The notes: generated by a model not told the origin, from the sequence alone. A DNA stretch of 64,000 nt from Schmidtea polychroa (GCA_044892525.1 CM097886.1:35898001-35962000); one strand, 5' to 3'; numbered from the stretch's first letter, positions 9,001-51,824 are shown. A program made the numbers and translations.

Positions 9001-12000
9001 AAAATGAGCCCATTCAAATTAATGTACGGAAGAGAATGTAACATGCCAATGGACCTGGAATACCAACCACCGATATCGCAGTATATGGAGATCGATGATT
9101 ATGTTACGAAATTCAAGGAAAGAATGCAAGAAATTTGGGAAACTGCGGGATTGAATATCAAGTTCTACCAGGAAAGTTATAAAGATTTACACGATCGAAA
9201 GAAAAACGTGAAGCAACATACGTTCCAAACAGGTGATTGGGTAATGATAGAAACCCCGGAATTAATTCCAGGAACCGCAAAAAAGTTACAACGCAACGGA
9301 AAAGGACCATATGAGATCTTATTCGTAGGCGAAACTAATGTAAGAGTGAAATTGGTAAATAACCCCTTTACCAGACCAATATACGTAAACGTGGCACGAT
9401 GCAAATCAATTCCAAAAACAGCCACTAGTCAACCAGAAGGCCGTACATTAACCACACGTTCGCAAACCTACCGAATGAACATGATGCAACAACTCGCAGA
9501 ACCGATCACTGGACGATTAGGTATCCAACCATCAGAAGCGGAAAAGATTGTAAAAGAGGTAAAAATTAAAATACCTGGATGGGCAAAAGATCGATTAGAT
9601 TTCGAAATATTAGGAGGATTATTGACGATGATCGAGAACTATGCAAATAGAGAAAGGACACACCCATTATTGCGAGTAGTCAAAAGCCAATGGCCAATAT
9701 TATTTACAATAACAGATCATTACGGAGACACACCATTACACAAACTCATGAAAGTAGGTAACAACGAGCAAATACTAGAAACAATAGAAGCATTTCACGA
9801 CTGCAAGCGATCAACAGAACAAACAAACAACCAAGGTTACACACCATTAATGATAGCCGCAAACAGAGGCAAAACAAAAGACATTATAACCGCATTACTC
9901 GATACCGGATCGAAAATAACTACACAAGACCACGAGCGGAAAAACGCTCTACATCATGCTATCGAAGGGAGAAGTACCGAGGCGTTCACGTCATTGATGG
10001 AACTACTATCATATGAGGACAATCGGGAAGTCGGAAACATGTATGATGGATTGTTAACAGCGATCAAAGAAAAACTGACGACAATTACCGAAATATTAAT
10101 TACATGGAGAAATCCAATTCGAAACGATTATATGATCAACGTAAACGAAGCGTTCACGAGAGGAGAGAACACGCTGATGAGAGAAGCTATGAAAGGACAT
10201 CATTTATTCGAAATCCCGAATCAATTACTAGAACGAGGGATAAAATTCACAAATCACAAAGACGAACAGTTAACAAAAAAGCGAATCGACACATTCGAAA
10301 AATCACTATTCCAATTTACTAACCAAGTACGAAATAAATATTGGGAAACGGTAAGTGTGTTATATATGATGGACACGATGAATAACATCCGCGAGAATTA
10401 CATGGATATTATCCAAATACTTACAGCAGAGGAACGAATCAATAATCCAAACGGAAAGAAAATGAAAATAAAGTATGAGAAATCCAGGGAATCAAAGTCA
10501 ACAACGAACCAAACGGTCACAAACAACGTCATCGAAACCAAATCAATGAGTATAGATCAAGAGGCAATAATACGCAAAGCAAAAGAAGTGTTCTTTGAGG
10601 AAATGCTAGAGCTGCCAGACGAAATAATATTGTCCAAAATAATAAAAGCCGTACACACATACGCAAGAGATCAAACCACGGGTTTAGATATCGGGAAAAT
10701 CAAAACCTTCTTGCCTCGAGCATTTACGATGGTAACGAAGGATTCCAGAACACCCCTACAACAAGCAATACTAGCGGCGAAAGAAAATAGAGCAATAACG
10801 ATCGTGAGAATCCTTGGAGAGATGGGCGAGGAAACCAACACGAAAAATGAACAAGGTGAAACCGCCATGATGTATGCAGCTATAACGAAAATACACCCAA
10901 AAACACTCCACATCCTACATCAATCAGGATCGAAACTAGACGAAAAGTCCAATGAAGGAAATTCCACCTTGGACTGGGCAACCATACAGCCAAACTTAGA
11001 AATGATCAGATTTATTTGCAAAAATGCGACAAAAGAAGAAGTTGAAAATATGTGCAAAAACACATCTCAGTTTCAATGGAATACGGTACGGAAAAATCTA
11101 GAAGCAATGAAATTATTATTAACCTGGAGAGTACCACAAAATAATAAATATGCGATAAATGTAAACGAATTCTACGAAAACGGAGAAAATGCGATGGTAA
11201 AGAATACCCTAACCAAGGGGGGGACACCTAAAATAATTTTAATAGTATTAAATAGAGAAGACCTAAAATTCACGCAAAATCAGAACGAGCAACAACGAAT
11301 TGGGAAACATCGTCGTATGCAATTGAGAGAGTTAGTTAAAGAATGGAATAGAAAGAGACATGCTGCAACGGGTAGAAAAGAGTTTGAATTCGAAGCAAAA
11401 TTAGCAAGAAACAGAGTGCTAACAGCATATCGCAGATTATTGAACGATATAAATGTCGAGGACGACATTTTAAACGACAGCGGGGGAGATAAACACGATG
11501 ACAATAACGGAAAAGGCCGAAAGGAGGATAAAGAGAAAAGAGAACAGGAGGAGGGTAAACCGGAAAACAAGGATTCGGATACGAAAAGAGAGGGAAACAG
11601 CCCGGGAACTAAGACCAAAGAGGAGGAAAAATCGAATAATGGAAAACAGAGGGTATGCCTACCTTTCACTAACAAAGAAATAGAGACAAATATGATATTA
11701 ATGATAATTATGCTTACCATGATAGAGTTAGTAACAGCTCAGGGAGGGACGAGAACGATAAAAGAAACCAAAGAAGCGGAGAATCAAGATAGCAAAGAGG
11801 ATGAACTAAAGCAAGAAAAGAAAAAGCAAGCACAAGAGCAGCAGTGGGATTTAAAGGAAGAATGGGACTTAAAGGAAAGGTGCATACTAGGAAGATGCAT
11901 GTCTAGAGCGTATCAGAAACTAGTACTGATAAATGAGGCCACAGAACCAATAACAGAAGTAAGAATACAAGAAGCATACCGAAATCGAGACGGGAAGAGA

Positions 12001-12693
12001 ATAACGAACGTCAAAGGAAAAGAGGTACACCTAGGAAAAGGTGGTGAAGTAGTAATAACGCAGATCCAACCTAGAAAAGAGCACAAAGTCTGTATTTCAA
12101 GATTAGGACCAGGCGAGAGATGCCATCAATATGTGACGCAGCAGCAGCCGCCGAAAGAATACACGGTTTGTATCTGGAGGAATGAATCAAAAAGAGAATG
12201 CCGACGATACCCGGGGAAAAGAGGAAAGAAAAGAAAAAACCACGACGAAAAGAACGAAGGAGGAAAGCACAAGAAAACTGGTGAGGAAGCTCAGGACAAC
12301 TATGTTTCGGAGGAAGAGATGGAAAAAATACAAAAGATGGCAAAGGAGGGTATGAACGAGGAAATAGCAAGAATACGGGAAAGGATGAAAGGAAATGGCA
12401 AAAGAGGAAACGAGAAAAGTACAGAAGCGATATCAACATTAACAAACAAGGAAAAACCAGAGAGTATAAGCGTGAAGCAGATGATGTGGATCAGTGGGAT
12501 AATAATAACAGGGGCATTCCTAATCATAACGGGGGGAACAATAAAAATAATTAAGGATAAACGACATCGCGGAGAACTGGAGATGACTCGAATCAGAAAT
12601 TTCCAACATCGAGTGAAACGACCAAGTGATATCAAACAAGAACAGTGGGTGGAGGCCTGGAACGCTCAGCGCCCTCCAAACTCACGTATATAG
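1..12693 (+). CDS. Giant polyprotein (Ubl x3, Bcl-2-like, Env, PR, RT, RNase H, IN, ankyrin, TM protein); 5' incomplete
   Basis: Frame is open from base 1 (RLQAEEERIKQ...); the track start at 64 is only a TTG. Motifs IDTGA, YIDD, TDASG, HDGRLGGH..C..C, DVVGP, TDQGTNF, TERFN, GPY. Confidence 0.95.
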   Translation, partial: RLQAEEERIKQERNQQRQEQPLRINMMKLVKDMKSQYCYNYGKSPRVVPMTEPEKVKEITTEMKTENSTTILKGNQRTQKIFWKKIKDKIEKEHNKAKTETEDENNKSEEQTSQLNHQMLQELESEETTIFERKKLKRVPRMRNLQINMMKRTKDVASSDEEEDYVSSLGGEILQPSEISEPPKGEIKEEESGNEITSESEDEDIEIKLRKAREEAIKQVAEILPVVVRNQEFIDVIPFRRFVQKVMKLERNEKDLIPNEEKSIIKNYMEKMKQADTTRYVIKIGTSRGLERMWIKNTVTDELFDWIREHLGSSRKKEYLYQYQGEQIKPDMHLVDALIWPGETQILKLHKEKQPANLYDWAKDAKAEYDFNIKLKLEQIKQCTLRRNLDKLIKQIQEQVEDNWDLLITRRAPAMYELMSRLRDTEMLRMSDWRTINLIHKYGRLKETQPQRLEITIWLPNEEKRRIKMSNQSTVDDLVSKINQEITEKVRSESSDGMVDDVVMMYDKIILRTEDDTSLSEMGMWDNHQIIRIVPMDEFRTRDVTYQKEIRDRMKTLYRKSTEIIEIHQQWLKEKELQGKITKLNTRSCRRTPWERVWNAESKEWEIRKGTFVETDIGETESESEEEEEEPPEYEEEARGQTSDDESETDVTSESENEARHIHAMRKKEREYADMDGEEATEAREREETERYKQLGDILAMGAKNQKRQVVALANIILKTSENIHNLRGMAKAIEEYRQYNEWYPEQLEQIIRKWRNQEWAQDTQERYHIQIKYPDKSIEELEVHPTTKIRELKKKLAYETPFHLQLFGKSLDDNADVGITPMRLEETNVLTMAETLGKPLKRKSKIIKPTKGSLSTPSPNKAPSKSNETEEVEEIILEDSDDEPGERSPLLVRWPTGAEMWTNNQPSTSYQQPTKLNIKEIIDNTTETETDEQFQKQREPTKVTPESQTDKIIDEWNEWLRNNDSSLPRTDNERNPNYENTREAGTMMEKRAKGRPKKQGEKSELKTKEQLKQEQGQVRLEKLDKIVWDLKEAQPTIERGEKWIRELLKDILIITNPQLRRLWQRKVASTEARQLWHTISGIIPKLIKEKTKTTKTDWDETKRVIEQLTTNANDDEHHLVVITYLMYNLMGLAARKIPNKQFANHVEMTVLIIENTIEPHIIRAGGWKRLIQAPRKNEQERSMQVRLKKLLNELEWELPMKDPASRKASINSLMMTMMIWMLCTSGATGFTIYDCDNMIMRDKYSLRDIEECRQASPNKLDIVRTKVTYHVYQESDFIRTQARECVVSKKVLAYYCGQYSYSTLILPGLDKEIVSIQREDCKELFRTGALKMHNGVTIHGQTGMIKTESVYVSGKVKSSDGSCNGGTYTIRGEVISGVVVIESYTVELKEYEAQFDANNYQMKTNPACKATENVCRTGVSTIIYEANTQKCRLQLLKSALFNEVKGEIYENENDEDGNDRVRMRNGKPMPPSPREKRLSTQKTPTALITDDPDLGMRFIKEKETTKCDSIVYKTNYAGIYMSRQIIDRAVGKIATEDVKLYLYANNKMDFLFHRGQTTLQKVYYDLIQNDCSLNKEILKTKLAIAITHPDNTMPSLPLPDGHFGRMVGEVMYTYQCTKTYARMPEKSILPEKRCANELEIRYKGQNRFVQPVTRIMNPVGFYPNLFNCSNAYGPLYERPDGKWMMLPGKTISEEPKKFGLIELATELDFKPIDVSNGGMYSPEDLETARLNVLFPARRESILSNMVTITGGTNYQSGPNYELLLSPDHFQQATSNMMKAMWGRFLVFGQMMAGILGIILIIQIVRVILTQMLACFDIYKREKKVNWKMIVGFLPFLAKTMVLHGHSKDIHRIKRLIKILTKIKGTDEEVGRRFRKVMYDEATRRQLKKNKPKFLDRFRSQSSNSDSDDDDNGNDKCLYPNRNPNEKPMETAPYWEKEKTNTWIANGSYIPPDIVGPQAALTMTQNMYPQLPSQPGMHYMPTRRTKSVDQADDVRTIAAMSLPGGPAVTVMIQINGKETNAMIDTGANVSAIAINQIPSKHWKNIESTTIHIIACSKETVDVVGRWWTTLRYQDNEIETYLAVIPKLSVPCIIGTDLMPELLKEVVIDLTTMCLKDKTGRICKMNAVIRCPEKIIVPAKSQMICQIKVDTGMEGEVIFEPSKSFEKRRELPLAREIITINQEGVIPLNITNFEEEDKIIYENEKLGRLTPMMDIELPKVTNEMIKDDELWTIDSMLLTNDEKKKLHRLLVEYKDIFAISDLDLGTCDVTLHAIPLIDETPIALRPYKLAEMQKEIAEAEVQKMLDAKVIEPSCSPWQFPVVMVKKKDGTQRFCIDYRKLNAVTKRDTYPLPDINEMLLMLQGAAYFTSLDLKSGYWQIKVKDEDKEKTAFTLGRDLYQFRKMPFGLTNAPASFQRCMNFVTHGIKQCMVYIDDLLIYSATFEQHLEDIRNVFIRLRQWKLKLKPSKCDWAKEKVTFLGHIVSAKGKEPDPRNIEKIKLCPAPKTVTQVQEFLGLCGYYRKFIKNYAGIAKPIQELVKKDISFIWEKEQQQAFETLRDKLIEAPILVHPDFKKPFLLATDASGYAAGAILGQLDDEGKERVIGYYSRTFKKHEKNYSVTEREALAIIQAIKHFRYLLWGHEICITTDHQPLVWLGQHKEASSRLMRWAMQLQEYSPFIKFKAGRANANADCMSRFIFPDLVDSEMQRICLIVAEDLDFCQLRKDQQEDAELKQIIDYVKTGKTEVYAKDQKLKEHMDKHRHRYIIEKDWLLIMDGEKRLMCIPENRRKELLTQYHDGRLGGHMSSKKTLARMKQKYFWPTLTEDVTEWVKNCLTCATRKNTGSKWKAPLTPMPVPIEPMTMISMDVVGPLPESDKGNVYILVITDFLTKFPEAFAMPDQKAKTIAKILVEEICCRYGTPKQILTDQGTNFMSEIMSEVTNYFKIAKLRTSPYHPQTNGMTERFNGTLIQMLSNYVDRHQRDWDEYINLCLMAYRMSIHASTKMSPFKLMYGRECNMPMDLEYQPPISQYMEIDDYVTKFKERMQEIWETAGLNIKFYQESYKDLHDRKKNVKQHTFQTGDWVMIETPELIPGTAKKLQRNGKGPYEILFVGETNVRVKLVNNPFTRPIYVNVARCKSIPKTATSQPEGRTLTTRSQTYRMNMMQQLAEPITGRLGIQPSEAEKIVKEVKIKIPGWAKDRLDFEILGGLLTMIENYANRERTHPLLRVVKSQWPILFTITDHYGDTPLHKLMKVGNNEQILETIEAFHDCKRSTEQTNNQGYTPLMIAANRGKTKDIITALLDTGSKITTQDHERKNALHHAIEGRSTEAFTSLMELLSYEDNREVGNMYDGLLTAIKEKLTTITEILITWRNPIRNDYMINVNEAFTRGENTLMREAMKGHHLFEIPNQLLERGIKFTNHKDEQLTKKRIDTFEKSLFQFTNQVRNKYWETVSVLYMMDTMNNIRENYMDIIQILTAEERINNPNGKKMKIKYEKSRESKSTTNQTVTNNVIETKSMSIDQEAIIRKAKEVFFEEMLELPDEIILSKIIKAVHTYARDQTTGLDIGKIKTFLPRAFTMVTKDSRTPLQQAILAAKENRAITIVRILGEMGEETNTKNEQGETAMMYAAITKIHPKTLHILHQSGSKLDEKSNEGNSTLDWATIQPNLEMIRFICKNATKEEVENMCKNTSQFQWNTVRKNLEAMKLLLTWRVPQNNKYAINVNEFYENGENAMVKNTLTKGGTPKIILIVLNREDLKFTQNQNEQQRIGKHRRMQLRELVKEWNRKRHAATGRKEFEFEAKLARNRVLTAYRRLLNDINVEDDILNDSGGDKHDDNNGKGRKEDKEKREQEEGKPENKDSDTKREGNSPGTKTKEEEKSNNGKQRVCLPFTNKEIETNMILMIIMLTMIELVTAQGGTRTIKETKEAENQDSKEDELKQEKKKQAQEQQWDLKEEWDLKERCILGRCMSRAYQKLVLINEATEPITEVRIQEAYRNRDGKRITNVKGKEVHLGKGGEVVITQIQPRKEHKVCISRLGPGERCHQYVTQQQPPKEYTVCIWRNESKRECRRYPGKRGKKRKNHDEKNEGGKHKKTGEEAQDNYVSEEEMEKIQKMAKEGMNEEIARIRERMKGNGKRGNEKSTEAISTLTNKEKPESISVKQMMWISGIIITGAFLIITGGTIKIIKDKRHRGELEMTRIRNFQHRVKRPSDIKQEQWVEAWNAQRPPNSRI
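835..1050 (+). other. Ubiquitin/SUMO-like domain 1 in polyprotein
   Basis: YVIKIG...LFDWIREHLG...YQYQGEQIKPDMHLVDALIWPGETQIL resembles the beta-grasp pattern; weakest of the three. Confidence 0.4.
1354..1605 (+). other. Ubiquitin-like domain 2 in polyprotein
   Basis: LEITIWLPNEEKRRIKMSNQSTVDDLVSKI...MMYDKIILRTEDDTSLSEMGM matches the Ubl pattern (TV.DL..KI; L.DD..LS..G). Confidence 0.6.
2299..2499 (+). other. Ubiquitin-like domain 3 in polyprotein
   Basis: YHIQIKYPDKSIEELEVHPTTKIRELKKKL...LQLFGKSLDD aligns by eye with ubiquitin [27 protein letters not shown]...LIFAGKQLED. Confidence 0.7.
3061..3525 (+). other. Bcl-2-like helical domain in polyprotein
   Basis: BH2-like IEPHIIRAGGWKRL preceded by amphipathic helices at BH1 spacing; the canonical NWGR is absent (DEHHLVV). 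The upstream part (NPQLRRLW...EARQLWHTIS) could alternatively be MADF/Myb-like. Confidence 0.6.
3628..5448 (+). other. Internal signal peptide + envelope (class III-like fusion) glycoprotein + TM anchor
   Basis: Hydrophobic LMMTMMIWMLCTSGATG then FTIYDC..YSLRDIEEC..YQE..REC..YCG: Cys spacing of chuvirus-type/retrotransposon-borne glycoproteins. NxS/T sequons (NCS, NYQS-like region); TM FLVFGQMMAGILGIILIIQIV. Confidence 0.8.
6001..6372 (+). other. Retropepsin aspartic protease
   Basis: VMIQINGKETNAMIDTGANVS and CIIGTDLM. Confidence 0.95.
6840..7560 (+). other. Reverse transcriptase (Ty3/gypsy)
   Basis: SPWQFPVVMVKKKDG, RFCIDYRKLN, LDLKSGYWQI, MPFGLTNAPASFQR, VYIDDLLI (YIDD at 7288-7299). Confidence 0.97.
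7700..8085 (+). other. RNase H (Ty3/gypsy)
   Basis: LATDASGYAAGAIL, YSVTEREALAI, TTDHQPL, NANADCMSR. Confidence 0.95.
8125..9480 (+). other. Integrase (HHCC, DDE core, GPY module)
   Basis: HDGRLGGH...CLTC; SMDVVGPLP; LTDQGTNF; GMTERFN; GKGPYEI. Confidence 0.95.
9721..11250 (+). other. Ankyrin repeats, two clusters (~9721-10250 and ~10741-11250)
   Basis: GDTPLHKL, GYTPLMIAA, KNALHHAI, RTPLQQAI, GETAMMYAA, GNSTLDWAT. Confidence 0.85.
11686..12693 (+). other. C-terminal type I membrane protein: signal peptide, FN3-like/Cys module, TM, short tail
   Basis: MILMIIMLTMIELVTA/Q; VVITQIQPRKEHKVCI resembles FN3 strands E-F; TM WISGIIITGAFLIITGG; ends NSRI*. Confidence 0.6.
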
Positions 12694-12853
12694 AAAGGAA
12701 TATGACTGTATATAATTGTAAAAAGTAAGTATATCTTATGTATATAACAGTACTATATCTTTATATAAGCGCGGTATCAATATTATACAATAACGGGAAT
12801 CATAAAATAAAATTAAATTTACATAAGAGCTGAAAAGTGTATATAAATTAGGA

Positions 12854-13213
12854 ATGGATCAAGGAAATAACGAAATGAACCACAATACAGTAACTGAAGA
12901 ATTATGGAAGCAACAATGTGCCGTATTAGCACAATTAGTGTCCAATTTGCAAGAACAAGGACTGACGATGCACAGAAACCTGATCGAGAGTATGAACAGA
13001 GGATTTAGTTATTTGAAGATAATTGAAGACCAGAGGTTAAAAATCGAACAAATGCAAAGAGAGATAGAGAGGATAACCCAATATAGCCGTCGACAGGAAA
13101 TTGAAATAGACAGAATGATGGAGGAAGCAGAACAGACAGAAATAGAAGACTGGTCGGAATGGCTAATGAATAGAGAGGAGAGCGGACACGAAGCCGACTC
13201 TTCCGAACCCTAA
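12854..13213 (+). CDS. Accessory ORF1, 119-aa coiled-coil protein with acidic tail
   Basis: ORF track; same-length homolog at 51825-52184(-). Confidence 0.85.
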   Translation: MDQGNNEMNHNTVTEELWKQQCAVLAQLVSNLQEQGLTMHRNLIESMNRGFSYLKIIEDQRLKIEQMQREIERITQYSRRQEIEIDRMMEEAEQTEIEDWSEWLMNREESGHEADSSEP

Positions 13214-13298
13214 ACCAAACCTAGCTCAAAATGTAAATAATTGTAAATAAAATATCGAACCTGTATCGATAAGAACTATTTGTACATATAATTATAGA

Positions 13299-14687
13299 AT
13301 GGATAAACGACAAAGAGAAGAGTTCAGAGAGATTGTCGAGCAAGTCCGAAAATCTACAACGATCAGAATACACAAACATGTTACGTGCGGAATATGTGAA
13401 AAGTTGTTAAAGGAACCTCACCAAACGCAATGTGGATGCAGAGTATGTAAAGAATGTATCAGTGAAGCAATAAAGAATAGACCACAGAAGTGCCCGGTGT
13501 GTAAAGAGACACTAATATCGAGTTTAGAAGACACTAACGAGGATAAAGCCGCAGTGAAAGACATGTTAAACACCAACCTGGGATGCAAAAATGCCCCATG
13601 CGAATGGAAAGGAGTAATATGGAAGGTAGTACAACATATGGGAGAATGTATGTACCGAATTGGCCAGTGTGAAAGGTGCCATAAAACCATTCGAGCAAGC
13701 GAAGAAAAAGAGCATCAAAGGCAGTGTGAAGAGAGATTGGAAAGATGTGAACACTGTGGAGAAATAGATACGTGGATAAATCTCACCCTCAAACATCACA
13801 ATGTCCAAGAGGAGAGAGTATGTGCAGAGTTCAGTGGGGAATGCCCGAACGGATGCGAAGAAGGGAGAATAATAAAAATAGCCCAACACCTAAAAGAATG
13901 TGAGAAGAAAAGGATGATATGTGTACTAGGTAGATGGGGTTGTCAGAAATTACTACACCGAGGTGAGTTACCACATCATTTAGTAGAAAATGCTTCAACT
14001 CACGCAGAAATGTGGTCGACTGCGTTACAAGAAAGCGAAGAGAAAGTAAAACAAATGGAGATAGAGATAACATCGTTGAAAGTGTTAGTCAAAGAACTAC
14101 TAGAAGAAAGGAAAGCGTTCGAAGAAGCCCGAGCAAACATAAAGATGCAAATAAACCGAACAGAAATCAGTAATAATCAGGCCAAGGAGCTACATCAGAA
14201 AATACGGGAAATAAATCTAAATGAGATAACCCCAACAGCACCCTACATATGGAAAATAACGGGAGTAAAAGAAAGAATACGAAAAGCAAAAACCGGAGAA
14301 GAGACAAGAATAACAAGTCCTACATTCCATTCTTGGAAAAATGGGTACAAAATGAAAATGAAGATATATCCCAACGGGGACGGAACCGGATCAGATACGC
14401 ACTTTTCGATTTTCTTTCTGTTATGTAAAGGAGAATACGACGAAATATTAGAATGGCCGTTCCAGGCAAAAATCGATATTACCCTGATGAACAACCAAAG
14501 TATACATGAGCAAAGCTTCAAAACAACGGGGAATCAAATAGCTTACCAGAGGCCCCTCAACGAAGAAGGATCAGCAACAGGAGCACCCACGTTCATCTCA
14601 CAACAAAGAGTAGAAGATATGGCGAGAAATGATACCATATATATCAAGATGACCGTGAGGAAAGAGGAGAAGGGTAGAACGGAATAA
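13299..14687 (+). CDS. TRAF: TRAF-family protein (RING, TRAF zinc fingers, coiled coil, MATH), 462 aa
   Basis: CGIC..LLKEP.QT.CG.RVC..CI..CPVC; repeated C..C...H...C fingers; YIWKI, SPTF...GYKMKMKIYPNGDG...HFSIFFLLCKGEYD.ILEWPF; homolog at 50346-51734(-). Confidence 0.95.
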   Translation: MDKRQREEFREIVEQVRKSTTIRIHKHVTCGICEKLLKEPHQTQCGCRVCKECISEAIKNRPQKCPVCKETLISSLEDTNEDKAAVKDMLNTNLGCKNAPCEWKGVIWKVVQHMGECMYRIGQCERCHKTIRASEEKEHQRQCEERLERCEHCGEIDTWINLTLKHHNVQEERVCAEFSGECPNGCEEGRIIKIAQHLKECEKKRMICVLGRWGCQKLLHRGELPHHLVENASTHAEMWSTALQESEEKVKQMEIEITSLKVLVKELLEERKAFEEARANIKMQINRTEISNNQAKELHQKIREINLNEITPTAPYIWKITGVKERIRKAKTGEETRITSPTFHSWKNGYKMKMKIYPNGDGTGSDTHFSIFFLLCKGEYDEILEWPFQAKIDITLMNNQSIHEQSFKTTGNQIAYQRPLNEEGSATGAPTFISQQRVEDMARNDTIYIKMTVRKEEKGRTE

Positions 14688-14879
14688 CCAATCGAATAAT
14701 GTTGTATATAATAATCTGTATATATCGGTGTATATAACCAATAAAATATTATATAATAATAGTATGAAAACCCTAAATACGAAAACCCAAAAATGATGCG
14801 AAAATTCCCCAAGAAACAGTAAATAATGAATAAATTCCTTTTTCATAATAAAAGATTAATCGATGTCTATGATTTAGAG

Positions 14880-15935
14880 ATGACAAAAGAGAAAATAACC
14901 GAAACTGCGATAGACCCAACCAATGTCAACAAGACACAAATTCTCCGAGAACATAACAAAAAATGGAACAAAGTAATGTTCCAACTAACTAATCTCACCC
15001 GAAATCACATCGAAGAAACTAGAGAAGATGAGAATAGTCAATACCAATGGTTAATACACAACTTAAGAGCGGAAGCAGAAGCATGCAAAAGAGCATCAAA
15101 ATGGGCGTCACTAGAAAATACCCGCCAAGAAGCACACAGCCACTACTTAAAGCAGCTAGTGCAGGAAGCGAGAAAGAGACTTACCGATGAGAACACCAAG
15201 CGCGAAGCGGAAAAACAAATAGAAGACAGGAAAATGATGCACTTAGTGGCAGAAGCGAGGAAATGGAAAAGACAAAACAGAGAAATGAAAAAAGAGATGA
15301 AAGAATTGCCCATGAGACTCGGATATGAAAGCGAACAAGGTAAATGGGAGGAGAATTTAATAATAAAGGAAGAATTGAAAAGGTTGAGAAAGGTCGCCGC
15401 CCGAAGCCAAACCTGGCAAACAAAGGCTATGGAGTTTGAGCGACATTTGGCAATGAAGTGCGACATAAGAGAGCACGAGAATGCCGCAATGGAAGAGATG
15501 ATAACCCAACAAGCGGGACGGGTTGTGGAATTAGTAAATCAGGTAGAAGAGATGAAAAGAGACCTTAATGGATTACAAGGATCGCTGGAACAAAGAAACA
15601 TGGTCCTAGCGGGAAAAAACAGAAAATTAGAAAACGAAAGGAAAATGTACACCGAAAATATTAAAAACTTAGAAATAGAAATTGAAAAATGGAAGGGCGA
15701 CGAGAAAATCAAGGCCCTAGACAAACAGATAGAGGCGCAAGATGAAGAGACAAGGTATCTCACCTATCTGCTCGACGAGGAATTGAATATCACTCGAGCT
15801 CTAAGAGACGAAGTTAGTGAATTGAGAGCTCAAATTCCCCAATATTACCTACCATACGACCCTATTGCGATACAGTTACATTCCGCGGTCGATAGTGATG
15901 AAGGTTATGTAGGCCAGGAGGAAACCTTCGTATGA
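14880..15935 (+). CDS. Accessory ORF3, long coiled-coil protein (~351 aa)
   Basis: ORF track 14826-15935; start moved to ATG 14880 because homology to copy B (49088-50125) begins there. Confidence 0.85.
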   Translation: MTKEKITETAIDPTNVNKTQILREHNKKWNKVMFQLTNLTRNHIEETREDENSQYQWLIHNLRAEAEACKRASKWASLENTRQEAHSHYLKQLVQEARKRLTDENTKREAEKQIEDRKMMHLVAEARKWKRQNREMKKEMKELPMRLGYESEQGKWEENLIIKEELKRLRKVAARSQTWQTKAMEFERHLAMKCDIREHENAAMEEMITQQAGRVVELVNQVEEMKRDLNGLQGSLEQRNMVLAGKNRKLENERKMYTENIKNLEIEIEKWKGDEKIKALDKQIEAQDEETRYLTYLLDEELNITRALRDEVSELRAQIPQYYLPYDPIAIQLHSAVDSDEGYVGQEETFV

Positions 15936-16103
15936 GGGTGGATGAAAAAATGAAAAACTAAAAACCGGGACGTATATCCCAAACAAAAAAATTAAAGTAT
16001 TGTAAAAGTATTCAGGGGACTGTAACCCAAACTATTAAATTTTATATCAATGTATACGTATAAGTCGCACTATAGCGCACCATTAACTGTACATATTATA
16101 GAT

Positions 16104-16802
16104 ATGAAAATCGAGGAAATGATAGAAATTATGAGCGACGTAGAAGAGGGAGAGATTGAGGCAGAAACAACAGAAACCCAAACGCTAAAGGCCGAGTTAC
16201 GGGAAGAGAAATACGAAAACGGGAGATTAATAAACAAATACCTGGAGGACCGGAAAATGATAAAGGTGTTAAAGAAAGAGTGCGAAGCGTTGGGGGAAAT
16301 AAAAAGAGAAACGGAAGAGGAAAATGAATGGCTACACGAACAAAGGAAGCGAGGGAAAAACTGGGAAAAGATAGCGGAAGAACTATGGAAAGAGAGGGCA
16401 AGCTTCAAAGCAAAGGAGGTAATCCAAGACTACTGGAAAACTGAGGCGAAGGAGCGCCAAACAGCTATAAATAAATTAAAACGACAACTAGAAGAAAACC
16501 AACGGGAAAGTAAAGAAATGAGGAAGTGGGTCCGCAAATATAGAGAAATAGAAAGAAAACATCAACAACAAAATTACCTGCAAGAAAACGAACAAGATCT
16601 CCTACAAATCGAGCTAAAAAGAAACCTTGAAAAGAAAAGGGAAGAAATTAGACGCTTGGAAAAAGAAATTAGACATCTAAAGAGAGAAGCCCGTGAAAAA
16701 GACCGACAATTGGAAATGCTGCCCGAGTTAAGACACAGGGTAATTAAAGCAGAGTCCACCTTGATGAGAATCGGCGAAAATAATCCAAATCAGAACCATT
16801 AA
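16104..16802 (+). CDS. Accessory ORF4, coiled-coil protein (~232 aa)
   Basis: ORF track 16050-16802; ATG 16104 matches the copy B start (48212-48913). Confidence 0.85.
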   Translation: MKIEEMIEIMSDVEEGEIEAETTETQTLKAELREEKYENGRLINKYLEDRKMIKVLKKECEALGEIKRETEEENEWLHEQRKRGKNWEKIAEELWKERASFKAKEVIQDYWKTEAKERQTAINKLKRQLEENQRESKEMRKWVRKYREIERKHQQQNYLQENEQDLLQIELKRNLEKKREEIRRLEKEIRHLKREAREKDRQLEMLPELRHRVIKAESTLMRIGENNPNQNH

Positions 16803-16857
16803 ATTAAGGGTCATTAAAACCAATTGTAAATAAACATAATGAATGTATAATAGTATC

Positions 16858-17511
16858 ATGCGAGGCGAGATGATGATAACAATGATGGTATTGATGATTC
16901 TGATGGAGAGCAAACAAATAGACGCCCAACCGAAAATCGTACGAGATTACCGAAATCAAAATCAAGAACCTAAACAAGAATCCAGTCAATGCACATACCC
17001 GATGACCGTAAAAACCCATATCATCCAAACCATTCAATCAACCCGATCACACATCAACAACATCCAAACAATGTGTAAAAAGAATCCCATTTGTAAAATG
17101 ATAAACAAACAAATCCTCGAACAAATTCAACAATTCGACCAGTTGGAACAACAAATGCAACAAGAGAATTTTGGAAATCTGGTAGAAAAGCCAAAAATAC
17201 CTCCCGAAATCAATGACACCCATTATCTCATATATGCGGTGATCGCAGAAACCCTCCTCCTATGTCTACCAATATTCATGAAAATTTACGAAGTTCGAAA
17301 TAGATGTAGAATCTCGACATCAATAAGAGTAACCTCGAACCAAAATCCTCAAGAAGTGCCCCTGACAAATCTTAACCCAACCCCATTCCGACCTCGAACC
17401 CCGAGTAATCAACCAATCCAGCCGAAATCTAATAGTCAGACCTATCTCAACATCAATACCCAAACCAACCAACAGCCGCCAGCAGAAGCATCAATGGTTA
17501 ACAGTTCATAA
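16858..17511 (+). CDS. Accessory ORF5, type I membrane protein (signal, coiled coil, TM, P/Q/N/T-rich tail)
   Basis: MMITMMVLMILMES signal; TM YLIYAVIAETLLLCLPIFM; diverged homolog 47521-48156(-) shares I.ETL..C. Confidence 0.8.
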   Translation: MRGEMMITMMVLMILMESKQIDAQPKIVRDYRNQNQEPKQESSQCTYPMTVKTHIIQTIQSTRSHINNIQTMCKKNPICKMINKQILEQIQQFDQLEQQMQQENFGNLVEKPKIPPEINDTHYLIYAVIAETLLLCLPIFMKIYEVRNRCRISTSIRVTSNQNPQEVPLTNLNPTPFRPRTPSNQPIQPKSNSQTYLNINTQTNQQPPAEASMVNSS

Positions 17512-17696
17512 ACTCTAACTCAAACATTTGTGTTATTATATGTGGAAACTTTTATTGTATGTACAAACTATCACCTTAAGTGATACTTGCTTGATCTTGC
17601 TTTGACCTTGATCTTACAATAAAAATTTTATCATTGTTGTATAATTTTCGTGTTCGTGTTATATTTTTTTGAATGAATGAATTAAGTTAATTATGC

Positions 17697-17734
17697 AATT
17701 GCGGGACGCAATTTTGATGGGTCCCCGAGTGATT
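17697..17734 (+). promoter_or_regulatory. Conserved pre-LTR hairpin and non-canonical PPT region
   Basis: AATTGCG-GGA-CGCAATT then GGGTCCCCGAGTGATT directly before TGTTGG; counterpart at 47291-47328(-). Confidence 0.7.
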
Positions 17735-18068
17735 TGTTGGGCTGAGTCGAGAATTTAATCGTTGAAAAATAAGAAAGTAGGGAAGTAGAACATTAAGAAA
17801 AATAAAAATAAAATAAATAAAATCAGAAATAAAATAGAATAGGATATAAGGAAAATAATAATTAAGACATAAGAATTAAAACAAAAAATAAAATTAAGAA
17901 AAGATTAAAATAGAACAAGTTGACAAATAAATAAAGAGGAATTCAAGAAATAATAAGGAAATTAAGGAAATAAATAGAAAAACATATTAAAAATAAAGAA
18001 AATAAGGAAAAAACAACCTAAAAACAAGAAAATTATATTAAATTAATAGAAATAAGCGGTACTCAACT

Positions 18069-18105
18069 CTGATTGGTCCGCACAAATAAGAATTTGATAT
18101 ATATA
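18069..18105 (+). promoter_or_regulatory. CCAAT box (reverse, ATTGG) and TATA-like element in LTR A
   Basis: CTGATTGG 18069-18076 and ATATATATA 18097-18105; copy B has CTGATTGG and TATATAT at the equivalent position (46761-46788). Confidence 0.5.
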
Positions 18106-18128
18106 CAACTACCAAAAACATTAAATTT

Positions 18129-18204
18129 ACTGTTAACCCCGAGCATTTCATAGGTAAGAAAGAATGTTTACTGTTTTCACTGTTAACCCCGAGCATTTCA
18201 TAGG
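18129..18204 (+). repeat. 26-bp direct repeat (period 50) bracketing a putative 50-nt GT-AG intron (18154-18203)
   Basis: ACTGTTAACCCCGAGCATTTCATAGG twice; first copy followed by TAAG giving GTAAG. Confidence 0.75.
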
Positions 18205-18627
18205 ATCGACACTACTAGCCAAGCAACCGTCATTCAGAAAACTCCACATCTATTCAAAACCAGTTCAGAGACCGAAATACCATTCATCACAATAATCAAC
18301 ATCCAACGGACCACCATTAGAACTATTTGGAACGAACAACATTGAACTTTGACTCAGCCTAACAATAGTAAGGGGTATTTCATTTGTTTATAGATTTATT
18401 TAAGTATTTGCAAAGCTAATAGTAATGTTAAATATTAACGATTAAATATTTTAGTTAACTCTCTTCATTTGATTCTCCATTTTAATAACTTTAACGTATT
18501 GATGGAATTTGTATTATTTAAGTATTTCAGAATTAATAAAATATTTTTATCCAGATGTCCGTATTTTATTTGAATTAAAGATTTTATAAATTTTCATTTA
18601 ACGAGTAACGTGGAGTTGAGATACTCC

Positions 18628-18819
18628 ATGTCATGGTATGAGGTGCCTTCGGGAGCTCAGCCGGTGGACATGGAGTATTTCAATCACGCAGCTAGATTGG
18701 GCCGAAATGTGAAGGCTTCTTCACGGGTCCTATCGCTGAAGATGCGACTGAATTATCACAATGGGTTATGGTTAAAAGAATCGCTGGTAGACAATGATTT
18801 CACAAAGATAGTCGTGTGA
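18628..18819 (+). CDS. Small LTR-encoded ORF-a (63 aa)
   Basis: VPSGAQPVDME and LKMR motifs recur in a frameshifted ORF in LTR B (46227-46441). Confidence 0.45.
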   Translation: MSWYEVPSGAQPVDMEYFNHAARLGRNVKASSRVLSLKMRLNYHNGLWLKESLVDNDFTKIVV

Positions 18820-20324
18820 ATGAAGGGATTTTCAAGGATTTGCACAGTGATTGAGGGCGTCGCATTCTTTTTTGTTTTTCTTTCGTCAAGTCGTTTTCGT
18901 AAATCTTACCCCTATTGAAAAATGAGATCCAGACAACGATTTAGTGAACTTCGTCAAAAATAACGACATCTCATAGTACGCTTCATCTGGAAACATGGTT
19001 TTATCAATTTAATTGCGACAACGTCTATTTGCCGGACTCAGTAGAACTGATTTCGTATGAAATTCCGTTATCATAGACCCGAGGTCATCTAGCCTGTCCA
19101 GATTGCATGTCAGGTTACGAAAGTATTCTAAAAACTTTAACTAACTCGAAACTATAAAATGCGAGATTCTACGAAAACCTCTCTAATATTATAATCAGAA
19201 AGTTTTTATAGACTTAGTTATTTCAAAAATTATAACAGGTAAAATATCACCAAATTTAATTAATAACATTTGTTTCTACAATAAGAGCCAGGTCATCACT
19301 GTATATATCCAAATTATTGAACCTGAGAGAAATTTTCGAATGGCTAAGGACAGGTTCCATCGAGACGGCATTACATCTGAATAGGAAAATCCGAGTAGAA
19401 TGACGCGAGTAGTAAAATGCTTCAGCATTTGGTGGAATTATTCCCTCGACGATCACTGAAAAGATCCAATAAATTTCCAAACGATGGTGATCATTCACAC
19501 AAGTTGATAAGGGTAAAATTCCGCGATGAGAACTGACGGCAGCATAAATCATGATTCAAATAAATCACTGTGCAGAGAAAATCATATGACAGCAGGATCG
19601 ATAAAATCACCGTGAAAATGGCATACACCAAGTGAGTGAGATAAGATAGTAGCCATACACGAATCCATGTGGTGAGAGCACAGAATATCGGACTAGCACA
19701 CATGATAGTCGCGACACGGGACATTCACAATAGGTCGATAATGTAATCAACTAGTTGACAGTAGTATCCGTAAATTTGGACATGTGTTATGACCGATGAG
19801 ATATCCCATTAGGGTGTTCAAGTAATGGCTGATGTAAACTCATCACATATTCTCAGACAAATGGTAGACAATATAGATAATCACATTCACTACCGAATTA
19901 AAAGTGCACTTCCAATAACAAATTTCGAATCAAAAAATATGTTGAGAATAGCGATAGTAACTTGTTTTTAATAAATTTAAATAGATAATTTATAGCAAGG
20001 TTTAGTCGCGTACTATAATGTCCCTCTACTAAAGCGTTATTATATTATTTCACCAATATTATATTTACACCCTATTAATTATTACGCCCCTCAGGTATAC
20101 AGTTAGATCAATAGAGAGTCAAAGTTAATAGCATGCGTCAAACCGATGGCATTTGGTTAAATAAACTGTTTCAACAAATAAGATCCGTGGTAAAACCGGA
20201 TTGTAGAATGAGTTTTCCTTTTTTTTTTTTTCGTCGGTCAAGCATCCACGAATGGCCGTGGGTCGTATCTAATTTATTCCAAAATCGTATGTTCTACATT
20301 TCATTAGTATTATTTATAGCAAGC

Positions 20325-21077
20325 ATGCTACCAACCACTAAATCAGCATTACGGCCGTGCTTCTCGTGCGCGGATAAAAATACGGTGATAAAGGACCTAC
20401 AAACTCAGATTGGACGTTACAAGAGGAAGATAGACGAGCTGGAAGGGACATGGTTTAGTCCCGCTCGGATGAAAGAGATCCAAAAGAAGCTCGATCGTAG
20501 CGAGCATTGCCGGGACGCGCTAATATCTGAGAGCCGTGCCCAAAGAAGTCTAATCCGAGAACAATCCGAGGCACTGCATAAGGTTTACGTGCAGGCGGCT
20601 ACAACCCGAAAAATAGTGCAGATTCCCATCCGAGAGGCCGATGACATCTTTCCGCCTCATCACAACCTTTCCTCGAATCCATCTCCACCGTTCAAGAGAC
20701 CGTGCCGAGACTGCGTCGAAACCGAATTGTCCCCCAAGCGACCAGATGTTGTCATCACGGGTACCAGTAAGCCCCCCACTGCTAGTCCATCCGTATCAGT
20801 CACCCTTCTGCAAGTGGCCTCTTCAAGCAAACCCAAGCGCAAACAACTCTCTCGTGCAGAGCGCAAGAAGAGACAGCGCGAGCGCGCCACTACAAAGCCA
20901 AACATCCCATCCATAGAGGATTCAACCAGCGGTGGCAACTCTCACGTGTCCATCGACCTAACAACGGGACCCTCGGCACGAATCATATCAGCCGCTGGCG
21001 TAATGTGGGAAGAGAACGCTTCCGAGTTTTTTAACCTCGACGAATTATTCGCCGACACTGAATGGGAGAAACAATAA
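20325..21077 (+). CDS. LTR-encoded ORF-b: CxxC, coiled coil, basic NLS, acidic/aromatic C-terminus
   Basis: LRPCFSCADKN shared with 43656-44420(-); NLS KPKRKQLSRAERKKRQR; ATG 20325 is preceded by TTTATAG. Confidence 0.8.
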   Translation: MLPTTKSALRPCFSCADKNTVIKDLQTQIGRYKRKIDELEGTWFSPARMKEIQKKLDRSEHCRDALISESRAQRSLIREQSEALHKVYVQAATTRKIVQIPIREADDIFPPHHNLSSNPSPPFKRPCRDCVETELSPKRPDVVITGTSKPPTASPSVSVTLLQVASSSKPKRKQLSRAERKKRQRERATTKPNIPSIEDSTSGGNSHVSIDLTTGPSARIISAAGVMWEENASEFFNLDELFADTEWEKQ

Positions 21078-21200
21078 AATCCCAGTGGTGGTCAGGATGA
21101 GGAACAAGGATCCGATCTATGTTGATTATGATGTTTTCTCTTCTTTCGACAAACGTTAGTAAAGTGTACAGCTGAATCCTTGTGTCATAACATTGAAATT

Positions 21201-21206
21201 AATAAA
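21201..21206 (+). terminator. Candidate LTR poly(A) signal
   Basis: AATAAA followed by T/GT-rich sequence, 120 nt after ORF-b; not verified in B. Confidence 0.35.
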
Positions 21207-21342
21207 TCTTGTTGTATTACACGTCTTCGTTCATGAATAATTAGACTTTAATTAAGTGGGTCGAGTAGAGAACCCGCGAGATCTAGTGAGAAATTCCCAA
21301 TTTGCATTCAGCGAATCCCGATAAGCGGTTGTGTAAGGAAAT

Positions 21343-21484
21343 GGACGTAAGCCCTTCTATCGGCAGTCGTGAATGGGAAGTCGAGGCCTCAGCAAGGAGT
21401 AGTTTTAAGGCAGAAGCTCACCTGCTTGCTGGCGTCTCGCCTGCATAGTGCAGTACCAACGTGAAGTGATTCACGGGCACTATG
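21343..21484 (+). ncRNA. Conserved cis-acting structured RNA near the LTR 3' end (copy A)
   Basis: Three helices covarying across LTRs A, B and C; invariant AGTACCAA bulge at 21452-21459. Confidence 0.8.
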
Positions 21485-22733
21485 TTGGAAGAAAGTTATG
21501 TGGGGTTTCACTCCAGGTTGACAAATCGGTGGCACCTTTTATTCGAGATGGACAATCAACCCTTAGACCCGTCAACGTGGTAGAGTGGTCAGCCGAGGTG
21601 TAACCCCAACAATGCTATTGCTGTTTTATGTATATTTTTGTTAATACTTTGTCATTTTCCTTATCCCAAGAGCCAAGAGTTCCGACGACTAGAGCGGCAA
21701 AATTGGTTTTGCATTTGTTACTTTTTCCAGTCTCGAGTGCTAATGTCCTATATATATTTGTAGTTGTCTACTCTAGGCGTCTGGAAGTTCTCTTCGTGAT
21801 CATAAGGTACTTAGATGTCTAGTATGCTTAATTTGTTATTACGTTTTGTTTTTATGATAAGGTCTGGTCGTAAGCATGTGTCGATACCAGGGGTTGGCAC
21901 GTAGAGTCTACTTAGAATCCTCTAGATATAAGTAACCCGGATACCCGCCATGTTTTTTATGGAACCGAAAACCGGGTAATTTTAGACTGGTATCCGGTTA
22001 ATTTCATTTAAATAATTTTTTCCATTATTTCAAATTAAATGCAAGAGCCGAATCGGTGTTCTTAAACGACTAACGTCTTTGAACGACAAAAAAGGGACAG
22101 CACTTAGCGGCCTATAGATTTCGAGATGAGCGAATGTATAGATTCGGATTATTTTGAAAGGATGCAGCTGCAAATACTAGCGATTAATTTTTGCGCTGGC
22201 GAATTAGAGATTTCCAAAAATATTTTTAATCTACATTGCATTGACCGGCCGATGACCGCGGCCCGAGGAGACTGAGCTTTCCTCGCGATATCCGTCGTTT
22301 TATGGTTAATCAATCCTTTTGTACCTGAAACATTAGTATATATTGCCTGAAAATCGAAAAATACGATTTAAGTTAATCGTTAGGCGAGAAGTCGGCTAGA
22401 CATCATTCAATAAGCACGAAGACACGTCAAGAATCGCGAACCTTCAATGTATTTATCTTTAAAAATATTTTAATTTTGAATTATCCTAAGCGTCTAAAAA
22501 GGTGTATGATATGCATGATCGTGATCTCAATTTATTTTTTTTCACTCTTTTTTGATTGATAAAATTTTAAAAAAATATTTAAATATTAGTATGACATTTT
22601 TAAAAGCTGATAGTCTTAAATAAAAATCCGTATCATTGTTGCAATAAATAATAATTATTTGTCACATTTATTATTACATTTTTCATAAAAATTCGGAAGA
22701 AAATTCCATATTTTTTGTAAACACTTGATTTGA

Positions 22734-36190: not shown

Positions 36191-36325
36191 CTTGGTACCC
36201 GTTGAGTAATCAACGTTGGTACTGTACCAAGGGGTTGAGTACTCGCAAAAATTGAGTGCGTTAGGAGCACTATAATTGTCGAGCACTCTATGGGTTCACG
36301 GACGGCCGATAGAAGGCATGTGTCC
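36191..36325 (-). ncRNA. Conserved structured RNA (copy C)
   Basis: CTTGGTAC-AGTACCAA-CGTTGA-TTAC-TCAACG-G-GTACCAAG; upstream GGAC-ACAT-GCC-TTCTATC-GGC-C-GTCC. Confidence 0.8.
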
Positions 36326-36503
36326 GATTTATTTCGGTCCCTCATCGCGATTGTTTTCCCAAACGCTTTTCTGTCGACCGTCTTGTCCTGGACAATCACA
36401 AAGTTTAATCACATATCCATCAGACAATGAAAATCATTTATTTAAACACTACAATATTACAATGTCGGTTTTACCCAGGAGGGGTCGCACTCTCAAACAT
36501 TCC

Positions 36504-36809: not shown

Positions 36810-37136
36810 CTTACCTTGCGTAGATTTTCGAGTAATTGGTACACTGAATGAAGATAATAATAAAATCCCATAGCTAGCTTCCAGGTGCGTAAAGGTGATT
36901 CGATTAATTGCATAAAAATAATAGATGAAGACACCCCCTAAGTTATAAGGCTCAAATGTAATAACAAAAGATAATTCATTATATGATGAAGGCACACGAC
37001 AACTATAATATAAAAATTTTAATAAAGAAAAAAGTCTACAATTCGTCATACTAACTACTAATGAGGTCAAACGCAACACAATATCACTAAATCAGATTAG
37101 TCAAATAGTTTTGTTCAAGTTACCACTTCCGACGAG

Positions 37137-48156: not shown

Positions 48157-48211
48157 ACTACTATACGAAAATTTTTATTTACAATTATTTACATTGATCA
48201 TTCATCTTTAA

Positions 48212-51734: not shown

Positions 51735-51824
51735 TTCTATAATTATATATATACATATATTCGTTACTGGTACAGTTTCGTATTTTTATTTACATTTATT
51801 TACATTGCTATTTTTAGGTTATAT

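Follow-up and report, generated by a model that had tools for sequence, protein, structure and literature searches.

Burro elements are giant Gypsy-type retrotransposons of planarians, described as about 30 kb long, with LTRs, Gag, Env between Gag and protease, the order protease, reverse transcriptase (RT), RNase H, and integrase, and ankyrin repeats (PMC6431247). The passages of that review that deal with Burro make no statement on accessory-ORF expression (PMC6431247), and neither Burro splicing nor a leader-duplicating LTR intron was described in the papers listed by literature searches; Grohme 2018 and Lee 2026 may already cover Burro transcripts. Foamy and complex retroviruses are described as having a donor near the cap, small non-coding exons, and weak alternative acceptors (PMC7828637). 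Spliced-leader (SL) trans-splicing has been reported in Schmidtea; flatworm acceptors are often common to cis- and trans-splicing, and flatworm SLs are reported to end in ATG (PMC12582326). The locus described here resembles the flatworm and nematode operons resolved by SL trans-splicing (PMC12582326) in its close same-strand genes with an acceptor-like site before each start, but it brings its own cis donor, and its AG-ATG distances pay no heed to the reading frame that an SL ending in AUG would set.

Organization of the elements

The window, a stretch of 64,000 nucleotides from Schmidtea polychroa (GCA_044892525.1 CM097886.1:35898001-35962000), holds two 30-kb Gypsy-type, Burro-like elements, copy A and copy B, with the following features.

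1..12693, +, 3' part of the copy-A polyprotein: fusion-type Env, protease, RT, RNase H, integrase, ankyrin repeats (Pfam)
12694..12853, +, spacer 1: three UGUAHAUA, AATAAA at 12806, AG at 12850-12851
12725..12730, +, donor-like GTAAGT, 31 nt past the polyprotein stop
12854..13213, +, accessory ORF1: 119 aa, without a Pfam family
13214..13298, +, spacer 2: three UGUAHAUA, AATAAA at 13246, AG at 13296-13297
13299..14687, +, accessory ORF2, TRAF-like: 462 aa, RING plus MATH
14688..14879, +, spacer 3: three UGUAHAUA, three AATAAA, AG at 14876-14877
14880..15935, +, accessory ORF3, from the conserved Met
15936..16103, +, spacer 4: UGUAHAUA at 16088, AG at 16100-16101
16104..16802, +, accessory ORF4, counted from the Met that follows the AG
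16803..16857, +, spacer 5: fused UGUAAAUA/AATAAA at 16825-16834, AG at 16852-16853
16858..17511, +, accessory ORF5: hydrophobic N-terminus
17618..17670, +, poly(A)-site-like AATAAA, then a GT/T-rich tract, just 5' of the 3' LTR (a sequence reading)
17735..21611, +, 3' LTR of copy A, 3,877 bp
18071..18106, +, putative promoter elements: CCAAT-type box (GATTGG at 18071) and TATA-like box (18096)
18129..18153, +, leader L: 25 nt, ATG-free, about 30 nt past the TATA box, ending in AG
18154..18203, +, predicted mini-intron: 50 nt, donor GTAAGA
18204..18367, +, putative second non-coding exon: no ATG; a weaker donor, GTAAGG, comes next at 18368
20298..21077, +, LTR ORF-b: AG at 20318-20319, ATG at 20325, AATAAA at 21201
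about 36120..41749, -, solo LTR of group C (LTR C): ORF ATG at 37502, AG two nt before it
43121..47290, -, 3' LTR of copy B, 4,170 bp
from 44420, -, ORF-b of copy B
46740-46713, -, leader of copy B
46712-46662, -, predicted mini-intron of copy B: 51 nt, ending in a leader copy
47521..52350, -, accessory array ORF1-5 of copy B with acceptor AGs

Copy A is 30,101 bp long (26,224 bp between the two LTR starts, to which the 3,877-bp LTR is added), and so exceeds 30 kb as Burro does; its target duplication is ATGC, and its 3' LTR is identical to the 5' LTR (L001:1011-4887). Its single polyprotein, stop-free and of 4,617 aa in all, starts with Gag upstream (L001:8340) and carries, as in Burro, an in-frame fusion-type Env before the protease, RT, RNase H, and integrase, as well as ankyrin repeats (Pfam). 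Accessory ORF2 supplies the MATH/TRAF function of Burro, and RING was the sole domain detected in the ORF after the 5' LTR. The elements thus share with Burro the polyprotein layout, the MATH/TRAF and RING functions, and accessory ORFs. They differ in that TRAF has an ORF of its own, located downstream of the polyprotein, and that no BIR domain, present in Burro1, was detected at E 0.01 in the proteins scanned. These features suggest that the elements are Burro-like, a likeness to the description of Burro rather than to the reference sequences of Burro-1 to -4. Relatives of ORF3 were found neither in metagenome contigs nor in the protein collection, and none of the TRAF ORF in viral contigs. 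As for start codons, an in-frame ATG upstream of ORF3 (14826) is absent from relatives, one upstream of ORF4 (16050) is restricted to some subfamilies, and the start of ORF5 is ambiguous, many copies having a further in-frame ATG five codons before it.

Putative splice acceptors upstream of the ORFs

The original prediction held that nearly every downstream ORF has an AG just before its ATG, and every AG context that it quoted from copy A, copy B, and LTR C was present in the sequence. The ends of the AGs and the starts of the ATGs in copy A are 12851/12854, 13297/13299, 14877/14880, 16101/16104, 16853/16858, and, for ORF-b, 20319/20325; the position 20327 formerly given for ORF-b has the right context but is the G of this ATG. 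On the minus strand of copy B, the G of the AG lies at 52186, 51737, 50132, 48917, 48161, and, for ORF-b, 44421. The mere presence of an AG did not exceed chance, since 288 of 502 internal Met codons also had one within 10 nt, and shuffled spacers placed an AG within 10 nt of the start at a mean P of 0.58.

We fixed 158 starts, comprising 56 distinct contexts in three diverged groups, via conserved N-terminal protein motifs. All of them (158/158 starts, 56/56 contexts) had an AG within 10 nt of the ATG. The base at -3 was T in 39 contexts, C in 10, and A in 7, so that YAG occurred in 49/56, compared with 0.26-0.27 by chance. The host splice model was built on 69 of 121 called introns, the other 52 having been discarded (weak flanks or duplicate gene). 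A host-acceptor score of at least -4.1 was reached by 56/56 contexts versus 32/502 internal Mets, and an AG-free zone of at least 15 nt was found in 44/56 contexts versus 39% of shuffles and 88% of the 69 host acceptors; the 56 contexts are kin by descent and hence not 56 independent tests. The -3 base toggled between T and C in ORF3, ORF4, ORF5, and ORF-b, and acceptors were kept at variable distance across groups without DNA similarity. The ORF-b copies of different LTRs had non-homologous T-rich acceptors with the same ORF behind them, and in several related LTRs the similarity to the copy-A LTR picked up again precisely at the ORF-b ATG.

The AG-ATG distance ranged from 0 to 9 nt, most commonly 2 nt (21/56), and the ATG followed the AG immediately in 9/56 contexts. 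On account of this variation, a Kozak or stop-codon origin of the AG was rejected. The distance was a multiple of three in 18/56 contexts, which is the chance rate, and shifted freely between subfamilies. The element acceptors were weaker than those of the host (median score 1.3 versus 3.7, p 0.0003). The start-proximal AG did not have the top score among the spacer AGs in 7/16 spacers, and ATGs occurred upstream of it in 16/16. The spacer 1 acceptor, the weakest in the set, reads AAG in many copies, and that of spacer 5 varies between TAG and CAG among subfamilies. Upstream of Gag, a T-rich YAG followed by 420-600 ATG-free nt was seen in four groups, an arrangement matched by 1 (A) and 6 (B) of 5,000 shuffles. 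Taken as sequence patterns, these results suggest that the AGs behave as 3' splice acceptors with scores like those of weak host acceptors.

The spacers measured 55-192 nt in copy A and 55-220 nt in copy B, slightly exceeding the 55-190 nt first proposed. The AATAAA motifs reported in several of them were present at borderline enrichment (20 versus 14.5 expected, p 0.08), and the one nearest each start lay 23-74 nt before the ATG. The Pumilio-type word UGUAHAUA, which might be read either as a site of host Pumilio or as one of CFIm25, occurred 27 times versus 0.6 expected, and a TGTA-type word lay at most 24 nt from the AG in 33/56 contexts versus 8/69 host acceptors. The GTAAGTA claimed to follow the polyprotein stop was found in both copies; GTAAGT was present in 20 of the 21 ORF1 spacers listed and absent from the group-C copy. 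This site at 12725 was rejected as a general donor, as it lies downstream of the polyprotein and is absent from the single group-C spacer seen.

The LTR leader and its duplicated copy

All 13 distinct leaders ended in a donor scoring 2.7-4.6, compared with a host median of 2.0 and a decoy 95th percentile of 2.25. A cis donor is thus present upstream of the array, contrary to what defines an SL operon, and the partner donor of the array is probably the element's own, the GT at 18154 in the LTR leader. The mini-introns were 44-54 nt long, and 50 of the 69 host introns measured 41-60 nt. The last 25 nt of the mini-intron in copy A (L', 18179-18203) are an exact copy of L. L' equaled L in 13 different leader sequences despite a median identity of 42% between leaders, and lineage-private changes were present in both (L036/37, L076/77, L070, and the L099 group). 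The 5' edge of L' had eight variants in 14 elements, and the 30 nt of L were identical in 13/14. As an acceptor, L' was poor in 8/13 leaders (score below -2).

Leader and exon 2 were ATG-free in 12/12 picked subfamilies, a partly circular test because the second donor was picked with the first-ATG position known; T content climbed past this donor, which was weak in several subfamilies. Group C had the accessory acceptors and lacked the duplicated leader, and short upstream ATGs occurred in some C, D, and E leaders.

Three LTRs (L072, L100, and L108) were exactly intron-less, and a fourth, L103, had 4 extra nt. Exon 2 in the window lacked a 31-nt AG-ended stretch retained by L025, which is what alternative acceptor choice would leave. 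The identity of L and L' together with the exactly intron-less LTRs would be best explained by packaged RNA spliced at the mini-intron and restoration of the intron by strand transfer. Slippage between direct repeats would account equally well for the intron-less LTRs and for the 31-nt loss. Unequal exchange, which might produce L = L', is disfavoured; an LTR with three leader copies was not seen among the LTRs inspected.

Contigs of presumed RNA runs and searches for spliced copies

No RNA run was listed among the holders of the sequence. Four of the twelve listed runs were compared over 11700-21700; all consisted of contigs, three being guessed to be RNA and one of unclear kind. No junction of a GT to an array AG occurred among the 15 joints listed (22 more lay beyond these), and none of the 20 listed loose ends lay at an acceptor (666 more lay beyond these); no SL read was seen among them. 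In two runs guessed to be RNA, contigs ran unspliced through 12725 and through the acceptors of ORF4 and ORF5; such contigs could be genome-length RNA or DNA. The start of one contig of run X6, three letters short of the ORF3 ATG, could not be interpreted, and a gap in X6 at 19048-20049 (LTR middle) was set aside because the region varies between subfamilies.

A search for spliced DNA copies with the leader followed by an ATG within 6 nt gave no match for the A leader and one for the B leader. The latter reads as a leader copy plus an exon-2 variant and did not align to copy A. Few spliced DNA copies are expected, because the primer site would be missing from subgenomic forms. In a 19-kb copy, neither of the two deletions ended at GT/AG, and no processed copies were found among twelve LTRs picked as unpaired, mostly solo LTRs.

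Discussion

We consider it likely that the accessory messages are produced by cis-splicing of the LTR leader to alternative acceptors, and place this clearly above SL trans-splicing. From the inference first made, cis- or trans-splicing of an operon-like array, the alternative 3' acceptors are retained, and the operon/SL half is disfavoured by the frame (18/56) and the LTR donor.

In an operon, cleavage and polyadenylation of a polycistronic pre-mRNA would take place in every spacer, and the host SL would be added in trans to the gene that follows, alone or together with cis-splicing. The same-strand ORFs lie 55-220 nt apart, inside the 300 nt expected of operons, with poly(A)-type motifs and an acceptor between them. 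Nevertheless, we regard this arrangement as unlikely: few starts would be in frame with an AUG-ending SL and subfamilies differ in this frame, AATAAA 23-74 nt before the ATG would place cleavage on or near the next acceptor at the usual offset, and the LTR offers strong cis donors. The frame mismatch is not decisive, since out-of-frame SL AUGs may be tolerated in flatworms.

Equally improbable, in our estimate, is an internal promoter in each spacer, with TGTATATA/TGTAAATA as TATA-like boxes and the YAG as part of an initiator, yielding unspliced mRNAs with short leaders. Foamy viruses are reported to possess an internal promoter (PMC7828637), and the enriched TGTA-type word (27 versus 0.6) lies near the AG in 33/56 contexts. 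However, the last box is often less than 20 nt from the ATG, too near for a TATA box, the leaders would have just 2-11 nt, and the ATG abuts the AG at 9/56 sites; the AG-free zones and T-rich tracts suit acceptors, and the LTR donor and the duplicated leader would be left unexplained. Least probable of all is that the AGs are incidental products of an A-rich start context or stop codons, with reinitiation or internal entry on long RNA giving access to the ORFs: a bare AG is expected within 10 nt over half the time and two spacers are crossed by unspliced contigs, but the YAG bias, the acceptor scores, the AG-free zones, the conservation at variable distance across dissimilar groups, and the ATGs upstream in 16/16 spacers argue against it, and an in-frame TAG is possible for just 18/56.

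Here, we proposed a model of cis-splicing from the LTR leader on the basis of sequence anatomy and statistics, from which transcription start, splices, poly(A) use, protein binding, and intron restoration are predicted. A single LTR promoter would give a long pre-mRNA, and the ATG-free exon L of the 5' LTR, often with the second non-coding exon, would be cis-spliced to one weak acceptor, namely that of LTR ORF-b, the RING ORF, the Gag polyprotein, or one of the accessory ORF1-5 about 21-25 kb downstream. The AUG of the chosen ORF would become the first AUG. The spacers would also serve as 3' ends of upstream messages through their UGUA, AAUAAA, and Pumilio-type elements, so that each mRNA could be single-gene. 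In the A/B group, the genome-length RNA would probably be the shortest-splice isoform, with the leader donor joined to the leader copy 50 nt downstream, and strand transfer onto L' in the 3' LTR would reinsert the intron. For the genome-length RNA itself, no poly(A) signal was found. More tentatively, and somewhat short of probable, we suggest the complete scheme, in which packaged RNA is spliced at a decoy mini-intron, minus-strand transfer on the 3'-LTR copy rewrites L' and restores the donor, and the same donor skips to as many as eight acceptors for single-gene mRNAs with Pumilio-type 3' ends.

Like complex retroviruses, the elements have an LTR-proximal donor, strong in 13/13 leaders and near a cap site that is predicted from TATA spacing, putative non-coding upstream exons, and suboptimal acceptors right before the ORFs. 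Retroviral genomic RNA is unspliced, whereas the DNA patterns point to a spliced 5' end of the packaged A/B-group RNA, at the 50-nt leader-duplicating intron; the elements also differ in having up to eight acceptors and two ORFs inside or beside the LTR. The adenovirus major late unit likewise combines a single promoter, a multi-exon leader, and alternative acceptors with several poly(A) sites, but it belongs to a DNA virus, which does not need to package full-length RNA through those sites.

Planarian genomes contain Burro elements in abundance, and one of these is reported by a citing paper to protect stem cells via an anti-apoptotic protein (PMC13465017). Burro RNA rises upon PIWI knock-down (PMC8532177). 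As the putative donors and acceptors are named to the base, existing long-read or junction data can test them. If the model is true, the elements avoid the retroviral requirement for an unspliced genome, and reverse transcription itself maintains the identity of the exon and the intron end. A self-restoring intron, if real, would be a different answer to the classic retroelement problem of how a genome with an RNA stage retains its splice donor.

Copies A and B and their relatives

The window (G000:C2:35898001-35962000 of a 781-Mb genome) contains two inverted LTR elements, copies A and B, which are approximately 79% alike. The LTRs of copy A were located as follows:

L001 (locus with the 5' part of copy A) 1011-4887, 5' LTR, identical to the 3' LTR
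window 17735-21611, 3' LTR, target duplication ATGC

As this pair is identical and that of copy B is 99.95% alike, both copies are recent insertions. The copy A polyprotein (4,617 aa) comprises Gag, a Monjiviricetes-type fusion protein, protease, RT, RNase H, integrase, and ankyrin repeats, a make-up that agrees with how a review (PMC6431247) describes planarian Burro elements and suggests a planarian host. Between the copies lie a hAT transposase of 599 aa that carries a BED finger (window 31565-33364) and what looks like a decayed relative (22875-24200).

No obvious purine tract was present before the 3' LTR (window 17697-17734), where a conserved hairpin motif was found instead. This hairpin had 1,170 matches in the genome, and its reversed control had 0. 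Sixty relatives, taken from the first 100 listed of these matches, comprised the A/B group, group C, which is distant, and the D and E types, which are shorter and have no downstream ORFs. The accessory proteins of group C were partly homologous to those of A/B, and its accessory DNA did not align. In the type sampled most often (L019, L020, L022, L024, L059-L064, and others), the element is short, a Gag-like frame is all that precedes the 3' LTR, and the same hairpin is present; it is a probable non-autonomous partner. One 19-kb copy (G000:C1:243936000-243955999; L036/L037) has lost 6.9 kb internally; the deletion coincides with a short direct repeat and not with splice sites.

AG sites before the accessory starts

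The original prediction held that nearly every ORF downstream of the polyprotein has an AG just before its ATG, and all contexts quoted for it were found in the sequence. Starts were set by conserved N-terminal protein motifs so that AG did not guide the choice; those of ORF4 and ORF5 are ambiguous, with an in-frame ATG just upstream in some copies. An AG was located within 10 nt of all 158 starts (56 distinct contexts), confirming the observation. A bare AG at this distance is weak alone, being also present at 288 of 502 internal Met codons and arising in shuffled spacers with P 0.58.

The base at -3 of the AG was T in 39, C in 10, and A in 7 of the 56 contexts. Among 69 host introns kept from 121 called in myosin genes by an aligner aware of GT and AG only, it was T in 45, C in 16, and A in 8, and 50 were 41-60 nt long. 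The median acceptor score was 1.3 for element AGs, 3.7 for host acceptors, and -5.1 for host decoys; all 56 contexts reached -4.1, versus 32 of 502 internal Mets. An AG-free zone of at least 15 nt was observed in 44 of 56 contexts versus 39% in shuffles. Because the contexts share descent, formal p-values for all these comparisons are too favourable. Upstream of ORF-b, which lies inside the LTR, unrelated T-rich sequences each provide an AG, and several LTRs regain similarity at the ATG itself. Ahead of Gag, groups A, B, C, and D have a T-rich YAG followed by 420-600 ATG-free bases. Considering the -3 bias, the scores, the AG-free zones, the ORF-b and Gag contexts, and the recurrence of the pattern in group C, we infer that the start-proximal AGs are weak 3' splice sites.

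Putative leader and donor in the LTR

A/B LTRs carry a CCAAT-type box and a TATA-like box; approximately 30 nt further on come a leader, L (25-28 nt, ending in AG), and a GTAA donor. In the 3' LTR of copy A these are:

window 18129-18153, ATG-free leader L
window 18154-18203, mini-intron ending in L', a copy of L

Among 63 loci, 27 had the leader donor and then a 44-54-nt stretch ending in a repeat of L; 34, of types C, D, or E, lacked this repeat; one (L072) had L joined directly to the next exon; and one (L085) was added later. The 27 loci contained 13 distinct leaders (median identity 42%), and each of the 13 donors had a score higher than both the host median and the decoy 95th percentile. 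An ATG-free exon of 119-196 nt follows L', and then a weaker second donor and rising T content. As this second donor was placed with the first ATG position known, confidence in this part is lower. Groups C, D, and E have one donor-like site 80-110 nt after the TATA box.

The middle of the LTR (window 18750-20320) is highly variable among subfamilies 95-99% alike elsewhere, as expected of an intron. In L021, L066, L070, L085, and L098, GTAAA directly follows the leader copy, and splicing would recreate a donor, as in recursive splicing. An AAGCG(C)GGTA-like word, possibly a common factor site, occurs in both spacer 1 (12766-12781) and U3, 5' of the CCAAT-type box (18053-18064).

Cis- or trans-splicing

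Since strong cis donors are at hand and only 18 of 56 AG-ATG distances (commonest, 2 nt) are in frame with an ATG-ending spliced leader (SL), the accessory starts are probably reached by cis-splicing from the LTR donors. SL trans-splicing, also proposed originally, is reported in Schmidtea, and the flatworm SLs reported so far end in ATG, according to PMC12582326; with the frame count against it, this route appears unlikely. The original interpretation was partly supported: its reading of the AGs as acceptors fits, and its trans-splicing part is disfavoured. Internal promoters are likewise improbable, and chance occurrence of the AGs is the least probable reading.

Among the joints listed for sequencing-run contigs aligned to the element, none was a splice junction at these AGs, and unspliced contigs from runs guessed to be RNA spanned the ORF4 acceptor, the ORF5 acceptor, and the GTAAGT 3' of the polyprotein stop (12725). 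These contigs neither support nor refute the cis-splicing model, which is built on DNA.

Spacer words

The word TGTA[ACT]ATA was counted 27 times in 16 spacers drawn from A, B, and C; shuffles gave 0.6, with a maximum of 3 across 1,000. It occurred once on the opposite strand of the spacers, 7 times in 33 kb of host introns, and not at all in copy A coding sequence. UGUA by itself is the motif used by CFIm in forming 3' ends. At the sequence level, the spacer word matches the Pumilio element UGUAHAUA, as given in an excerpt of PMC4995099. AATAAA was borderline enriched (20 versus 14.5), and in 13 of the 16 spacers its closest occurrence lay 23-74 nt ahead of the next ATG. Because cleavage directed by it would fall on the next acceptor, one mRNA per precursor suits better than a two-gene operon.

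The 5' region

L001:4888-4912, primer-binding-site-like sequence after the 5' LTR, several bases off its end, presumably resembling a tRNA-Pro site
L001:5230-5712, RING-only ORF between primer site and gag; it has an acceptor of its own and is followed by AATAAA and a GT-rich tract
L001:6296-7030, tandem array of 74-bp units between RING ORF and gag (approximately 62-bp units in B, L002:3480-4040)
L001:7995-8339, Gag frame open before the first Met

No BIR domain was detected in the RING-only ORF; a relationship to the Burro1 anti-apoptotic ORF is possible. Upstream of its first Met, the Gag frame stays open for 100-185 codons in all of groups A, B, C, and D (also L002, minus strand; L041; L019). 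When A is compared with B, 59 codons of this stretch are identical, 19 differ synonymously, and 27 are replacements, with changes mostly at third positions, and ACG lies within the conserved ITDKP motif in both. These features point to a non-AUG start or to an extended N-terminus.

Identity of L and L'

Lineage-private changes were present in both L and L', and those confined to one of them occurred in single elements only (L015, L094, L109). The 5' edge of L' had 8 variants in 14 elements, with L itself identical in 13. No triple leader copy was seen among the LTRs examined. A set of 12 LTRs chosen as unpaired comprised 9 with the repeat, 2 lacking exactly the intron, and 1 lacking it but carrying 4 extra bases; intron-less LTRs can also arise by slippage between direct repeats. 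Relative to L025, exon 2 in the window begins 31 nt later, directly after another AG.

Under the simplest account, splicing would join L to exon 2 at the start of the packaged RNA, the first DNA strand would stop at the cap site and then anneal to L' in the unspliced 3' LTR, and each cycle would recopy L' from L, leaving its edge imprecise. Reverse transcription follows established steps; their use for this element is what we infer. A poly(A) signal for packaged genome-length RNA was not found.

Our literature search found nothing on Burro splicing or a leader-duplicating LTR intron, and the primary Burro papers could already show such transcripts. An LTR leader feeding alternative acceptors is a known strategy of complex retroviruses, as outlined in part of PMC7828637; here the same strategy would operate on a larger scale and in a Gypsy element. 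The leader-duplicating intron scheme is possibly a new replication trick.
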